Positions 52,763-62,035 of a stretch of DNA of 64,000 nucleotides are shown one piece after another (position 1 is the first letter of the stretch; every line of letters begins with the position of its first letter). The notes under the pieces are model-generated. The model did not search any database. It was not told the DNA's origin and worked only from the letters and a program-made list of their open reading frames with translations. The position numbers were made by a program, and so were the translations under genes. Source of the stretch: Planctomicrobium piriforme (GTDB lineage: Bacteria; Planctomycetota; Planctomycetia; Pirellulales; UBA1268); NCBI GenBank assembly GCA_945869735.1, contig CAMBPQ010000005.1, positions 6,733 to 70,732 on the forward strand, in the 5' to 3' direction.

Positions 52763-53965
52763 ATGGAGTCGAAGAGCCTACGCACCGCCCGCCGCATGCG
52801 GGCCCTCGAGCCATCGGCCACGCTTGCCATGGCGGCCCGCGCCTCGGCGATGACCGCGGCCGGCATCGACGTTATCGATCTCTCGGTGGGCGAACCTGAC
52901 TTTCCCACCCCCGCGCACATCTGCCGGGCTGCCGAGGAGGCGATCCGAGCCGGGAAGACGAAATACACGCCCGCCGCCGGCATCCCTCAGCTCCGCGCCG
53001 CCGTCGCCGCCGACTATTCCCGCCGCACGGGCCTGGCCGTGTCGCCGGCGCAGGTTGTCGTCTCCAACGGGGCCAAGCACTCGCTTCACAACGTGTTTAC
53101 CGCACTGCTCGACGAGGGAGACGAGGTAATCGTGCCCACGCCCTACTGGGTGAGCTATGCGGAGCTCATCAAGCTCGCCGGGGCCAAGCCTGTGCTCGTC
53201 GAAACACGGATCGAGGACGACTTCAAGCTCTCGCCCGCGGCCCTCCGGGCGGCCCTTACGCCCCGATCGCGGATGCTCCTCCTCTGTTCGCCGAGCAACC
53301 CGACGGGCGTCGTGTATTCGGCTGAGGAACTCGGGGCCCTGGCCGACGTCGCGATCGAACGCGACCTCGCCGTCGTCTCAGACGAGATCTACGACCAGCT
53401 CGTCTACGACGGCCGCGCGAGCGTCTCTTTTCCCACGCTCCGGCCCGGGCTTGAGCACCGCACCGTGGTGGTCGCTGGTGTGAGCAAGACCTATTCGATG
53501 ACCGGCTGGCGGATCGGCTGGACGATCGCCCCCGAACCGCTCTCCAAGGCGATCGCCAATCTCCAGAGTCAGGAGACGAGCAACCCCGCGAGCGTGAGTC
53601 AGCATGCCGCCGTGGCCGCGCTCACCGGCCCGCAGGAGTGCGTGGCCGAGATGTGCCGGGCGTTCGAGCGCCGGCGGGACTTCGTGGTCCGGCGGCTCGA
53701 ATCACTGCCGGGTATCCGGCTGCCGGAGATCGGCGGCGCGTTCTACGCCTTTTTCGACATCCGCCAGCCGCTCGAGCGAATGCGCTCCGCCGGCATCGGC
53801 ACCAGCACGGCCTGGTGCGAGGCGCTCTTGGAGCAGAAGCACGTGGCGCTCGTTGCGGGCAGCGCGTTCGGCGCTGAAGGTCACGTCCGCATGTCGTTCG
53901 CGGCAGCGGAGGAGAAATTGGCCGCGGGGATCGACCGGATCGCCTCATTCCTTGACGCCAGCTGA
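52763..53965 (+). CDS. pyridoxal-phosphate-dependent aspartate aminotransferase (class I)
   Basis: DLSVGEPDFPTP, the YTPAAGIP.LR motif, the PLP lysine context SKTYSMTGWRIGW and NP.S..Q.AA. Confidence 0.9.
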   Translation: MESKSLRTARRMRALEPSATLAMAARASAMTAAGIDVIDLSVGEPDFPTPAHICRAAEEAIRAGKTKYTPAAGIPQLRAAVAADYSRRTGLAVSPAQVVVSNGAKHSLHNVFTALLDEGDEVIVPTPYWVSYAELIKLAGAKPVLVETRIEDDFKLSPAALRAALTPRSRMLLLCSPSNPTGVVYSAEELGALADVAIERDLAVVSDEIYDQLVYDGRASVSFPTLRPGLEHRTVVVAGVSKTYSMTGWRIGWTIAPEPLSKAIANLQSQETSNPASVSQHAAVAALTGPQECVAEMCRAFERRRDFVVRRLESLPGIRLPEIGGAFYAFFDIRQPLERMRSAGIGTSTAWCEALLEQKHVALVAGSAFGAEGHVRMSFAAAEEKLAAGIDRIASFLDAS

Positions 53966-53981
53966 CACGAGCCACCACGCC

Positions 53982-55202
53982 ATGGCCGCCGACGCCCCAT
54001 CGCCACGCGGGGATGCCGTGTATCTCGACCACGCGGCCGCCACACCTCTGCGGCCCGAGGTGGCTGCCGCCATGCAGGAGGCCGCGGGCACCGCGTTTGC
54101 CAACCCGTCGAGCCCTCATGCCGCCGGCCGCCGGGCCCACGCTGCCCTCGAGGACGCCCGTGAGCGGATCCTCGCGGCGATCGGATGCAACACCAGCGGC
54201 CCCCACCGCGACCGACTCGTGTTCACCAGCGGGGCGACCGAGGCCAACCGGCTCGGCGTAGTCGGTGCGGCCGCCGGACTCAGCGGGTGCATCGCCTGGT
54301 CGGCCCGCGATCATTCGAGCGTTGCCGCGGCCGCCCAGGATCTCGTGGATCAGGGATGGGCGGCGACCTCCCTGGAGCTCGACGAACGCGGTGCGGTGGC
54401 GGCGGCAGGGCGATTTGTGGAGGCGCTGCCCGCCGATGGCCGGGCCATCCTCTGCACAACCCCCGTCTGCGGGCAGACCGGCATCTGTGACTGGCGCGAG
54501 CCGCTCCCCGGCTGGATGAGGTCTCATCCGCGGCTGCTCGTGCATGCCGACGCGACGCAGGCGGTCGGCTGGGCCGAGGTCCCGTTCCGGGATCTCGCCG
54601 CGATGACCATCGCCTTCGCCCCGCACAAGTTCGGCGGCCCGCGGGGGATCGGCGGCCTCGTGGTCCGCAGCGGGATTCAGATCGAACCGCTCGTGCCAGG
54701 GCCTCAGGAGTTGGGCCTGCGGGGCGGCACGGAGCCGACTTGTCTTGCCGTGGGATTCGCGCGGGCCGTCGAACTGGCCGTGGCAGAGCGCGCCGAGACG
54801 ACCCAGCGGCTGACACGGCTACGGGACCTCTTCGAATCCCGCCTGGCGACGGCGGCCGCCGCTGCCGGCCTCGGCCTCTGCGTGGTCGGGAAGACATCTG
54901 ATCGCGCCCCACACATTTCGACCGTGGCGATCTCCGGTTGCGACCGACAGGTGATCGCGATGGCCGCCGATCTTGCGGGCGTCTGCCTGGCGACCGGCAC
55001 GGCATGCGCCAGTGGATCGAGCGAGCCGAGCCCGGCCGTCGCCGCGCTCGGCATGCCGGCCTGGGTCACACACGGGGCCGTTCGCATCAGCTTCGGACGG
55101 AGCACGTCGGAGCAGGACGTCCTGGCCGCGAGTGAACGGCTCATCGCGGTGTTCCGCGGGATCGCGACGGGCGGCCTTCACCCCGCGCCCCGGCACCGCT
55201 AG
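53982..55202 (+). CDS. cysteine desulfurase (class V aminotransferase, IscS/NifS-like)
   Basis: YLDHAA.TPL, NPSSPH, FTSGATEAN, the PLP lysine in FAPHKFGGPRGIG and the catalytic Cys loop ATGTACASGSSEPS. Confidence 0.85.
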   Translation: MAADAPSPRGDAVYLDHAAATPLRPEVAAAMQEAAGTAFANPSSPHAAGRRAHAALEDARERILAAIGCNTSGPHRDRLVFTSGATEANRLGVVGAAAGLSGCIAWSARDHSSVAAAAQDLVDQGWAATSLELDERGAVAAAGRFVEALPADGRAILCTTPVCGQTGICDWREPLPGWMRSHPRLLVHADATQAVGWAEVPFRDLAAMTIAFAPHKFGGPRGIGGLVVRSGIQIEPLVPGPQELGLRGGTEPTCLAVGFARAVELAVAERAETTQRLTRLRDLFESRLATAAAAAGLGLCVVGKTSDRAPHISTVAISGCDRQVIAMAADLAGVCLATGTACASGSSEPSPAVAALGMPAWVTHGAVRISFGRSTSEQDVLAASERLIAVFRGIATGGLHPAPRHR

Positions 55203-55278
55203 GCTTCCTAAAGGTGAGCGCTGGCAGGGACGCCCGCGAGTGGTGATTCCACGGGGCCCCGGTTCGGGGCGTCATCCC

Positions 55279-56145
55279 ATGGCGGTGTCTCGAAAATCGC
55301 GTGTTCAGGTGCAGACGCCCCGGGCGGGGATCGACGCCGCCGCATTGGCTCGACGGGAACTGCTCGCCTTGCTGTCGGCCGCCGCCGGCACGCGGGTCGC
55401 CGTCTACCAGCCACTCGTGCTGGTGCGGCCCGATGCCGCAACGGATCTGCTTGGCGACATCCGCAATGTCTGTCTGGGGTCTACCTCCGACGGAAACGCC
55501 ATCGCCGATGGCCGGGAACTCGGATCGATGCTCGCCACTGCCGAGGCCCACGACCGCCTTGATCGACTCCACGCCCGCCTGCTCTCGAAGCCATTCCTGC
55601 TCGTGCGGGGCGTCGATCGCCTCGCCTCGCCTCACTGCCAGCACCTCTTCGCAAGATTGCTCGATGCCGCCGCGGAAGCCGGCACGCTGGTCTGCGTGTC
55701 ACTGGCCCGGACGCCGGTCGCGGCGGGGCTTGAGGCGGCACTCGAGTCGCGGCTTTCCGCCGGCATGGTGCTCTCCCTTCCAGCGGCCGACCGGAGCCTC
55801 GATCGGGATGCTGGCATGGTGCCATCACGATCCATCGCCAGCCTGATTCGGTCGACGGCGCGGCATCACGGCATCGCCGCCGAGGTGCTCATTGGCCATG
55901 GCCGTCAGCAGTGCGTGGTTCGCATCCGCAGCGTGGCGATGTATCTGGCCCGGCGGCTGACGATCCACAGCCTGGAGGAGATTGGCAAGGCTTTTGGCGG
56001 CAGACAGCACACCACCGTGATGCGGAGCGTCCGCAGCGTAAACAAGTGGATCCGTGCCGATCACGGCTTCGCGCAGGACGTGGAAAAAATTGTGGGGGAA
56101 CTGCGGGCACCACGGCTCCGTCGCCGCAGGCATCCGGCGGGATGA
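55279..56145 (+). CDS. DnaA-like protein: DnaA domain IV plus a degenerate AAA+ core without Walker A/B
   Basis: The C-terminal VRIRSVAMYLARRLTIHSLEEIGKAFGGRQHTTVMRSV is a DnaA DNA-binding-domain signature. The central LLVRGVDRLA...GTLVCVSLARTP...LESRLSAGMVLSL aligns to the DnaA box VI-VII region. No GxxGxGKT is present. The gene occupies the dnaA position upstream of dnaN. Confidence 0.7.
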   Translation: MAVSRKSRVQVQTPRAGIDAAALARRELLALLSAAAGTRVAVYQPLVLVRPDAATDLLGDIRNVCLGSTSDGNAIADGRELGSMLATAEAHDRLDRLHARLLSKPFLLVRGVDRLASPHCQHLFARLLDAAAEAGTLVCVSLARTPVAAGLEAALESRLSAGMVLSLPAADRSLDRDAGMVPSRSIASLIRSTARHHGIAAEVLIGHGRQQCVVRIRSVAMYLARRLTIHSLEEIGKAFGGRQHTTVMRSVRSVNKWIRADHGFAQDVEKIVGELRAPRLRRRRHPAG

Positions 56146-56675
56146 CGCCCGACGCACGCGTGTGAGTTCACTGTTGAGTGGGTGGTTCGAAACGGCCGGC
56201 CGCCGAACCGACAAAAGAACCCGCCGCTGCGGCACCAGAAAACCAACCAGCACCGCCTCGTGTGTGGGCATGTTGCTGAAAAGCCCATGCCGGGCAACCC
56301 ACTGCCACCATGCATCCTCATGATGCCTGACCGTCACCGGTTCACCATTCAACCAACAGACCATGCACATCGACGTCCTGTCGAAATATCGCATTTTTTA
56401 GGCGAATAGTCGGCGGTTTTTGCCCCTCACTGCGAGCGTTGTTGGTTTTCGAACGGGAGCCGTTCGCTGGTCGGCTGTTTCTTCTTACCTTGAATACTCT
56501 TTCCTGTTGTCTCCTTTCATTACGTAATGACAAAAATCCAGCCAGCATTCCGCGTTCAATCGGCCCTTGGCCGTCCGCGGCATGCACGCCGGGGGCATTT
56601 CAGCAGGCTCTTTTTCGGGTACAGTAAGGGGCTTCGGGATTCACTGTGAGTACCGGGAAAGGATCGAGATCGTCG
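56146..56675. other. candidate replication origin / regulatory spacer between the dnaA-like gene and dnaN
   Basis: This 530-bp non-coding gap is much longer than other gaps in the window. It has the lowest-GC stretch seen locally (56478-56540), the perfect palindrome TCATTACGTAATGA (56517-56530), the hairpin CGAACGG-GAG-CCGTTCG (56451-56467) and three AACCAAC heptamers (56241 +, 56351 +, 56441 -). Confidence 0.35.
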
Positions 56676-57788
56676 ATGAAGATTCGCTGCCCGAAGGAGC
56701 CACTCCTGGCCGCACTGCAAAGTGCCACGGCGGTCGTTCCCACGCGTTCGCCCAAGCCGGTGCTTACGAACGTGAAACTTGAGGCCACCCCAGGGGGCGT
56801 GGTCCTTTCGGCGACGGATCTCGAGGTCGGCATTCGGATTGAAATCGAGGGTGTGGAGATATCGGCTCCCGGTGCGGTTCTCCTACCGAGCACCCGTCTG
56901 ATGGCGATTGTCCGTGAGAGTGGGCCTGGTACCGTGTTCGATATTCATTCCGACGGCACGGCCACCGTGGTCAAGGCGCCGCGGAGCGAGTTTCGTCTGC
57001 CGGCCGAGGACCCGCTCGAGTTTCCCTCGGTGGCCACGTTTCCGACGGGTGAGTATTTCGAACTCGCGACTCCACTGGTCCGCGAGTTGGTGAAGCGGAC
57101 CGTGTTTGCGACCGACAGCGAGTCGAGCCGCTACGCCCTGGGTGGCGTGTTGGTCGAGTTCTCACAGCCGGGAGTGATTGCGGTTGGCACTGACGGCCGC
57201 CGGCTGGCGAAGATGCAGGGGCCTGCCGAGGCGCGGGATGGTGCGCAGGCCGACGCGCAGCCGATTGTGCCGGCCCGCGCGATGCAACTGATCGAACGCT
57301 GTCTCGGTGGCGGCGATCAGACTGTCCACCTCGCTGTCCGTTCCAACGAGATTCTCGTCAAAACTGGGGGCACGACGATTTCGGCCCGCCTCGTCGAGGG
57401 CCGCTTTCCCAGATGGCGAGATGTCTTCCCCGAGCGGCCCGACGCGGTCCGCGTGCAACTCGTGGCGGGACCGCTACTGGCGGCTGTGCGGCAGGCCGCA
57501 ATCGTCACCAGCGAACAGTCAAAGGGAGTCGACTTCTCGTTCGAATCAGGGCAGCTGGTGCTCTCGGGTCGGTCGGCGGAGAGCGGCGAAAGCCGGGTTG
57601 AACTGCCGATCGACTATTCCGGGGCCACCGTCAGGATCAAACTCGACCCCCGCTTCATGGCCGACTTCCTCCGTGTGCTCGACCCTGCTGCGACCGTGGC
57701 TGTCGAAATCACCGATGCACAAAGCGCTTGCGTCTGTAGCACCGAGGACGGGTACGGCTACGTCATCATGCCACTCGCGGCCGACTAA
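56676..57788 (+). CDS. dnaN: DNA polymerase III subunit beta (sliding clamp)
   Basis: MKIRCPKEPLLAALQSATAVVPTRSPKPVLTNVKLEA is the typical clamp N-terminus, the length fits three domains, and the protein ends in YVIMPL. ATG 56676 is in frame in track ORF 56646..57788. Confidence 0.9.
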   Translation: MKIRCPKEPLLAALQSATAVVPTRSPKPVLTNVKLEATPGGVVLSATDLEVGIRIEIEGVEISAPGAVLLPSTRLMAIVRESGPGTVFDIHSDGTATVVKAPRSEFRLPAEDPLEFPSVATFPTGEYFELATPLVRELVKRTVFATDSESSRYALGGVLVEFSQPGVIAVGTDGRRLAKMQGPAEARDGAQADAQPIVPARAMQLIERCLGGGDQTVHLAVRSNEILVKTGGTTISARLVEGRFPRWRDVFPERPDAVRVQLVAGPLLAAVRQAAIVTSEQSKGVDFSFESGQLVLSGRSAESGESRVELPIDYSGATVRIKLDPRFMADFLRVLDPAATVAVEITDAQSACVCSTEDGYGYVIMPLAAD

Positions 57789-60671
<2,883 letters not shown>

Positions 60672-60730: not shown

Positions 60731-62035
60731 TTGTCAAGAAATATCATTCCAGCCCCCAGCCGTATGCTCCCCGTCATGCTCACACTCCCCCGGTTTTCGT
60801 TCGGCGTCGGCGACCGGTTCGCGCACGAGGCTGAGGCACAACTCGCGGCCTTCGAGCGGCTCTCGGCCGCCGGTGTCGTTGTGGCACCGGTCTGGAACAA
60901 GTCGAACCGGGAGCACTCGTTCATCAGCAGTGAGCCGGCGAGCGTCCGCGCCGCAGCCGCAAAGGCTGTGGCGGCCCGCGGCTGGCCCCATCCCTGGTTT
61001 GTCGATGCCGACCACATCCGACTCGACACGGTGGAGCGATTCCTCGACTCGAGCGACTTCTTCACGATCGACGTCGCTGACTCGATCGGTAAGCCAGCGG
61101 CCGACGCCGACGTCCGGGCCATTGTGGCCCGGCACCCGGAGCTCGCCCGACCCGTCGCGGTGCCCGGCGTCGCCGAGGCGATTGACCTCTCGGAGGAGTC
61201 GCTGACCACGATTGCGCGGAAGTACCTGCTTGCCTGCCGGGAGGCCGGCGAGATCCACCGGCATATTCGCTCCCGCCGCGGCGACGACGTGGTGATCGAG
61301 GTGAGCATGGACGAGACCGACGAGCCGCAGACGCCGCCAGAGTTGCTCGTCATTCTCGCGCTGTTGGCCGACGAGAATATTCCACTGCAGACGATCGCCC
61401 CCAAGTTCACCGGGCGGTTCAACAAGGGAGTCGACTACGTTGGCGATCTTGGTCGGTTCGAGCGGGAGTTTTCTGACGACGTAGCCGTCTGTGGCTTCGC
61501 GGTGGATCGCTACGGACTGCCCGGGTCGCTGAAGCTTTCGGTGCACTCCGGCAGCGACAAGTTTTCCCTCTACCCCATCATCCGCCGGACGCTCACCGCG
61601 AGCGGCGCCGGCGTGCACCTGAAGACGGCCGGCACGACCTGGCTTGAGGAGATGATCGGTCTGGCCGAGGCTGGGGGAGATGGCCTCGCGCTCGCGCAGG
61701 AGATCTACGCCTACGCCTTCGACCACGTCGACGAACTCTGTGGTCCCTACGCCTCGGTGATCGATATCGAGCAGAAAAAACTACCGCCGCCGTCCGAGGT
61801 GGCCTCGTGGGATGGTCCGCGGTTTGCCGCGGCGCTTCGGCACGTGTCGACAAACCCCGTCTTCAACCCTCACATGCGGCAGCTCGTGCATGTGTCGTTC
61901 AAGGTGGCGGCCCGGCAGGGCTCGCGGTACACCGACCTCCTGGTCGCCAACCGTGACATCGTCGCGAAGCAGGTGACGGAGAACATCTTCGAGCGCCACC
62001 TCCGCCCGCTGTTCCTGCCAGGCCAGAAGCCATGA
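60731..62035 (+). CDS. tagaturonate/fructuronate epimerase-like protein (UxaE family)
   Basis: SFGVGDRFAHE, APVWNKSNREH and WFVDADHI fit my recollection of the UxaE family. The sugar-acid context supports the call, but it is not verified by search. Confidence 0.5.
   Translation: MSRNIIPAPSRMLPVMLTLPRFSFGVGDRFAHEAEAQLAAFERLSAAGVVVAPVWNKSNREHSFISSEPASVRAAAAKAVAARGWPHPWFVDADHIRLDTVERFLDSSDFFTIDVADSIGKPAADADVRAIVARHPELARPVAVPGVAEAIDLSEESLTTIARKYLLACREAGEIHRHIRSRRGDDVVIEVSMDETDEPQTPPELLVILALLADENIPLQTIAPKFTGRFNKGVDYVGDLGRFEREFSDDVAVCGFAVDRYGLPGSLKLSVHSGSDKFSLYPIIRRTLTASGAGVHLKTAGTTWLEEMIGLAEAGGDGLALAQEIYAYAFDHVDELCGPYASVIDIEQKKLPPPSEVASWDGPRFAAALRHVSTNPVFNPHMRQLVHVSFKVAARQGSRYTDLLVANRDIVAKQVTENIFERHLRPLFLPGQKP

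Follow-up and report, generated by a model that had tools for sequence, protein, structure and literature searches.

A conserved, apparently ATPase-dead DnaA paralog beside dnaN in one family of Pirellulales

Introduction

DnaA is nearly universal and essential in bacteria, and in the well-studied species it is regulated by an ATP cycle. Proteins derived from DnaA are also known, among them Hda and HdaA, and more than one DnaA may be encoded by the same genome. In the Planctomycetota, 'Ca. Kuenenia stuttgartiensis' has three dnaA genes, and its origin lies at the one that adjoins dnaN/gyrB (PMC7709395).

The window analysed here is a stretch of 64,000 nucleotides (G000:C5:6733-70732) from Planctomicrobium piriforme (Planctomycetota, order Pirellulales), whose assembly (G000) comprises 3.17 Mb in 128 contigs, is 95% complete and has a GC content of ~67%. 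In this genome the gene 5' of dnaN encodes a short DnaA-like protein of 288 residues. It resembles the DnaA initiator (TIGR00362) in domain III, by profile and by fold, in the helix-turn-helix of domain IV (GGRxHTTV, 1j1v fold) and in its position 5' of dnaN, and it differs in that domains I and II are missing, as is all of domain IIIb (lid and sensor II), no GxxGxGK[TS] P-loop is present and Walker B has no acidic pair. As in Hda/HdaA, its AAA+ domain derives from DnaA, and it is not itself the initiator but would probably regulate it. However, Hda has Walker A with ADP binding and an N-terminal clamp motif and no domain IV, whereas the short protein has domain IV, no Walker A and no clamp motif that was seen. 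The likeness to 'Ca. Kuenenia stuttgartiensis' lies in several DnaA paralogs within one planctomycetal genome, one of them adjoining dnaN-gyrB, but PMC7709395 describes no ATPase-dead paralog functional in domain IV only. A literature search found no description of such an ATPase-dead DnaA paralog elsewhere, which does not prove its absence.

The nearest system is the DnaA1 protein of other Pirellulales, with which the short protein shares direct lineage, aminotransferase-X-dnaN synteny and the absence of domain I. DnaA1 keeps a P-loop, a lid and a detectable Bac_DnaA domain, while the short form has lost all three. Judged from its sequence, the short protein is best described as a conserved, apparently ATPase-dead DnaA paralog, derived from DnaA1, confined to one family and being lost.

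The locus and the boundaries of the short gene

The original prediction had described a 288-aa ORF directly upstream of dnaN, DUF721 and gyrB, and both the ORF and its neighbours were confirmed, DUF721 being the DciA domain. The features of the locus, in window coordinates, are as follows.

54018..55202, + strand: aminotransferase class V, cysteine desulfurase-like (Pfam Aminotran_5 1.9e-35; synteny)
55279..56145, + strand: short gene, a DnaA1-derived paralog (ATG 55279, TGA 56143-56145; 288 aa)
55279..55401, + strand: N-terminal 41 residues, without DnaA domain I/II (no DnaA_N match; alignment with DnaA1/DnaA2)
55402..55773, + strand: degenerate AAA+ domain IIIa, residues ~42-165 (HHalign 99.9%; Foldseek matches to DnaA domain III; predicted beta strands)
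55774..55833, + strand: linker, where the domain IIIb lid/sensor II (~45-70 aa) is deleted (alignment gap versus DnaA1/DnaA2)
55834..56106, + strand: DnaA domain IV helix-turn-helix, residues ~186-276, FGGRQHTTV kept (Pfam, TIGR00362, Foldseek)
56146..56645, no strand: intergenic, short gene to dnaN (scanned for DnaA boxes and conserved motifs)
56646..57788, + strand: dnaN, beta clamp (Pfam DNA_pol3_beta, three matches)
57859..58117, + strand: DciA (DUF721) domain, helicase operator (Pfam DciA 4.4e-12, in ORF 57307-58152)
58194..60671, + strand: gyrB (ORF list, synteny)

ORF 55279-56145 thus lies between the aminotransferase gene and dnaN-dciA-gyrB, and an aminotransferase in this place, ahead of DnaA1, the short gene or dnaN, is a conserved feature. 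Between dnaN and gyrB (window 56646-58152) the DciA gene is present and recF is absent; there is no DnaC/DnaI loader, in keeping with the order. The gene 3' of gyrB, at window 60731-62035 (+), encodes the tagaturonate epimerase UxaE (Pfam 1e-51), an enzyme not usually encoded near gyrB.

The frame of the short gene stays open in the 5' direction to a TTG at 54973, which would give a product of 390 aa. This R/P-rich extension showed no similarity to DnaA in any frame and resembles other spurious frames of the GC-rich genome. The homologs all begin at the corresponding Met, with lengths of 278-332 aa, and the proteins of G000, G022 and G023 have an identical start and are each exactly 288 aa long. 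That a frameshift or a longer 5' end might restore Walker A and domain I, which would have undone the original prediction, was ruled out on the following points. Searching the window from 53000 to 56700 with DnaA1 and DnaA2 by tblastn in all frames matched only the short gene and nothing upstream of it. What lies upstream is the aminotransferase, in a different frame, and the metatranscriptome contigs that cover the gene are free of indels. About 35 genomes of one family carry the short gene with the same length and start, so it is not an assembly artefact, and this conservation strongly supports the gene being more than a product of chance.

Two further observations were made on the gene itself. 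An ENA protein of 310 aa (P0004) is ~98% identical to the window protein in its C-terminal half and unrelated in its N-terminal half, and may be an assembly chimera or a recombinant variant. In addition, a perfect 12-nt inverted repeat (GGGCGTCATCCC/GGGATGACGCCC) at 55267-55278 and 56139-56150 exactly flanks the start and stop of the gene. The repeat is partly conserved, present in G022 and not in G023, and is probably coincidental or a terminator-like stem. A mobile-element origin as the driver, which the repeat could bring to mind, was rejected on this partial conservation and on the vertical inheritance of the gene in the DnaA1 lineage.

Domain make-up of the short protein

Domain IV was the only Pfam domain detected in the short protein (Bac_DnaA_C, E 4.2e-20). 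No Pfam match to Bac_DnaA (PF00308) was obtained even at E<=1, and none to DnaA_N (PF11638), with only 41 residues preceding domain III. The NCBIfam model TIGR00362 matched residues 185-273 only, at 88.6 bits, below the whole-protein cut-off of 343.9 bits. HHalign was used to compare a DnaA profile (A4) with a profile of the short family (A3), built from 10 homologs that share 62% identity on average. The two aligned with a probability of 99.93% and an E value of 2.7e-36 over 235 columns, spanning the Walker A region, domain IIIa and domain IV.

A similar conclusion comes from structure prediction. AlphaFold2, given the alignment of the family, produced a model (mean pLDDT 73.5) with a five-strand alpha/beta core, with predicted strands at residues 46-49, 73-77, 106-110, 137-141 and 163-165, followed by a helical domain IV. 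In a Foldseek search of the PDB, DnaA structures ranked first (8btg, 1l8q, 2hcb, 3r8f); the DnaA-box-bound domain IV of DnaA, 1j1v, was matched with an rmsd of 0.9 A over 94 residues, and further matches included DnaA domain III (8bv3, 2z4r) and Hda (3sc3). The predicted fold of the short protein is therefore DnaA domain III/IV-like in the model, and the original reading of its C-terminus as domain IV and of its middle part as the AAA+ core was borne out, the latter by HHalign and Foldseek though not by PF00308.

The nucleotide-binding motifs are missing, as had been proposed. The P-loop region (residues ~45-60) reads PLVLVRPDAATDLL, and in the profile alignment the GxxGxGK[TS] segment is missing or falls in a gap. 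In the Walker B region (residues ~102-110), which reads FLLVRGVD, the acidic pair is replaced, compared with LLILDGMD/LLVIDD in the aligned sequences. The absence of the lid and sensor II was likewise upheld, with a deletion of 45-70 aa in the alignments with both DnaA1 and DnaA2. To judge from these motifs, the short protein can most probably neither bind nor hydrolyse ATP in canonical fashion. Other parts have been kept. Domain IV is among the most conserved parts of the family, with GGRQHTTV retained and its R, H, T and T columns invariant, and the domain III remnant also holds many invariant columns, including the Arg (R158) of a box VIII-like motif, ESRLSAG.

A full-length DnaA2 elsewhere in the genome

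The original prediction implied that a functional initiator might be missing, and here it did not hold. A search of the whole genome found a second DnaA of 517 aa, called DnaA2, on contig C18 (L001/L003:11195-12748), which matches TIGR00362 with an E value of 1.6e-86. It carries Walker A (GPSGVGKTHL), Walker B (LLVIDD), a lid (Hda_lid match) and domain IV; its domain I match is weak. The neighbours on C18 are DXS, IspA and XseB, with no dnaN among them. Full-length DnaA2 was present in 24/24 genus genomes in the first draw, including those without the short gene, and its orthologs occur across the genus and the order. Since an intact, ATP-binding, full-length DnaA2 is encoded on C18, replication initiation is most likely licensed in the usual way, by DnaA2.

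One feature of this DnaA2 is an unusual recognition motif in domain IV, GRRSHSTV in place of GGRDHTTV, while the short paralog has the canonical-like GGRQHTTV. On these motifs, the two proteins may recognise different boxes.

With DnaA2 at hand, the idea that the short protein is the only DnaA of the organism, initiating replication without ATP, has almost nothing left to recommend it: it draws on the position 5' of dnaN that dnaA usually occupies, and is contradicted by the motif-intact DnaA2 of G000 and of genus members, including those without the short gene, and by the absence of the short gene from about half of the genus.

DnaA1 and the origin of the short gene

Five other families of Pirellulales have, immediately 5' of dnaN, a gene for a DnaA-like protein of ~370-420 aa, termed DnaA1 (L027-L031; for example L027:2226-3329 and L030:2213-3442). 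These proteins match PF00308 with E values of 1e-12 to 1e-30 and have an intact P-loop (e.g. PLVFYGPAGVGKTHL), a lid and domain IV, without domain I; Walker B is already altered in some of them (DGMD, ENL). The genomes that carry DnaA1 also encode a full-length DnaA2 elsewhere. The order Pirellulales thus has two DnaA paralogs, DnaA1 adjoining dnaN and DnaA2 at another place. In G032 (L030) an aminotransferase lies 5' of DnaA1, the same arrangement as that of the short gene in G000.

By maximum likelihood (IQ-TREE, LG+C20), the short family fell with DnaA1 in a clade with support of 100/98, on a long branch (1.85), and DnaA2, including the C18 protein of G000, formed a separate clade with support of 100/100. 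Because the tree groups the short family with DnaA1 and apart from DnaA2, the short protein is taken to be a degenerate DnaA1 and not a broken copy of the initiator lineage. The proposal that a DnaA without its ATPase holds the dnaA slot is therefore true in this genome, but the slot itself belongs to the DnaA1 lineage, which is without domain I even when intact.

Distribution, loss and selection

The short gene was found in 36/68 genomes of the genus, and in 16/30 of those at least 90% complete. The comparison of syntenic loci that had been suggested gave the order aminotransferase-DnaA1-dnaN, with no DnaA-like gene in the slot in half of the genus. In four genomes without the short gene (G013, G016, G021, G024) the aminotransferase lies ~570 bp 5' of dnaN, and no DnaA-like remnant was detected between the two. 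In a survey of 301 genomes from the order, copies of the short form (E<=1e-20) came only from family f1, where they occur in 5 genera. Within this family, the DnaA1 of g21 looks intact (G223: Walker B LLIIDDFD and a linker of lid length), g19 has the short, degenerate form (G166, G212), and g18 has none (G318, G139).

Four copies of the short gene contain one in-frame stop each, TAG or TGA (G020:C4:13797-14516, G050:C35, G054:C338 and G348:C27), which fits either pseudogenes in progress or assembly errors. The dN/dS values of the short gene were 0.24 for G000-G022 (dS 0.21), 0.39 for G000-G023 and 0.35 for G022-G023, and those of dnaN were well below them, at 0.02-0.05. The short gene is thus under purifying selection that is weaker than that on dnaN. 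Taken together, the sequences suggest a stepwise reduction of a dispensable paralog, in which domain I was lost order-wide, then Walker A/B and the lid in family f1, and then the whole gene in many genomes.

In one freshwater metatranscriptome, three short contigs derived from RNA match portions of the short gene and of the spacer to dnaN at 99+% identity. They lend weak support to transcription of the gene, as Logan contigs are without strand or level information and DNA contamination of RNA libraries is possible.

DnaA boxes and the origin of replication

No DnaA-box cluster was found near the short gene or dnaN, and the intergenic region 56146..56645 held neither such a cluster nor a conserved motif. 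Nor was one found near DnaA2 on C18. Genome-wide scanning for TTATCCACA with one mismatch gave a single cluster of at least 3 in 600 bp, at C40:20762-20804 (locus L043:8750-8830), made of four tandem ~21-bp repeats bearing TGTGGATAA. These repeats lie in the spacer between tRNA-Gly and tRNA-Thr, within a tRNA-Thr/Gly/Tyr/Thr operon 5' of tufB, secE and nusG. The cluster is unlikely to be oriC; it could be a datA/DARS-like DnaA-binding element or merely a repeat.

Cumulative GC skew reaches its minimum at C5:~50.5 kb, some 11 kb away from the short gene. The skew is weak, with a mean absolute value of 0.024 per contig, and comparably large shifts are seen within many contigs, so that oriC cannot be placed from the GC skew of this assembly.

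Proposed function and alternatives

The reading that we prefer, with a probability of roughly 55%, is that the short protein is an ATPase-dead, DnaA1-derived paralog that binds DnaA-box-like sites without ATP and modulates DnaA2. Both the binding to DNA and any effect on DnaA2 we infer from sequence. Domain IV would bind the sites with no need of ATP, and the conserved domain III remnant, in which the box VIII-like Arg is kept, would modulate DnaA2, which it might do as a competitor for boxes or as a cap or poison of DnaA2 oligomers. Regulation of promoters with DnaA boxes would be an alternative within the same proposal. A role as a DNA-binding modulator is suggested by the conservation of domain IV, a dN/dS below 1 and the persistence of the family over several genera. 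Counting against it are the loss in about half of the genus with no obvious consequence, the in-frame stops, the relaxed constraint and the lack of a DnaA-box cluster nearby and of any clamp-binding motif that was seen.

One form that such modulation might take is that of an ATP-independent 'dead DnaA', made of domain IV and a remnant AAA+ domain, which would be a natural dominant-negative or modulator of DnaA2, for example by occupying boxes or capping filaments at the origin. This is put forward only tentatively, and we would sooner doubt than expect it; if true, the 'dead DnaA' would be a naturally evolved counterpart of experimental ATP-free DnaA variants.

The same losses, stops and elevated dN/dS, together with the presence of an intact DnaA2, are what would be expected of a functionless remnant in slow decay, an ATPase-dead derivative of DnaA1 that persists as deletion is slow. 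Against such decay stand a dN/dS of 0.24-0.39, which is well above that of dnaN yet clearly below 1, the conservation of length and start across genomes, the strong conservation of domain IV and of the domain III remnant, and the spread of the degenerate form over 5 genera of the family, a sign that it has persisted for long. Decay is a serious rival, though we consider it a good deal less likely than modulation of DnaA2.

DnaA itself acts as a transcription factor in many bacteria. The short protein could accordingly be imagined as a transcription factor of the DnaA-box type, whose intact and conserved domain IV targets promoters, such as those of dnaN or of DnaA-regulon genes, apart from the origin. 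The location of the gene 5' of dnaN would suit this role, but no DnaA-box-like sites were found in the region upstream of dnaN and no target genes were identified, and we regard it as rather improbable, more so than decay.

The original prediction had raised the question of an Hda-like or SeqA-like regulator. For a SeqA-like one, nothing was found in support. An Hda-like negative regulator would stimulate ATP hydrolysis by DnaA2 (RIDA), perhaps through contact with the DnaN clamp, and derivation from the AAA+ domain of DnaA, the conserved Arg in the box VIII-like motif and the proximity to dnaN would all be compatible with it. The fit is nevertheless poor: Hda binds ADP through Walker A and has no domain IV, the reverse of the short protein, and the N-termini of A3, judged by eye, contain no clamp-binding motif of the QL[SD]LF type. 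A function of this kind is very improbable.

Significance

For those who work with these genomes, the place adjoining dnaN in Pirellulales is commonly taken for 'dnaA', yet it can be empty or occupied by a degenerate paralog. Annotation and origin-finding tools that use the gene next to dnaN would choose the wrong dnaA, and origins may lie away from the gene of the functional initiator. A lineage that keeps a DNA-binding DnaA paralog, apparently without its ATPase, under purifying selection would amount to a natural experiment in which the binding of DnaA boxes is separated from the ATP switch. Should the short protein indeed modulate DnaA2, it would be a new kind of regulator of initiation, built from the initiator itself.
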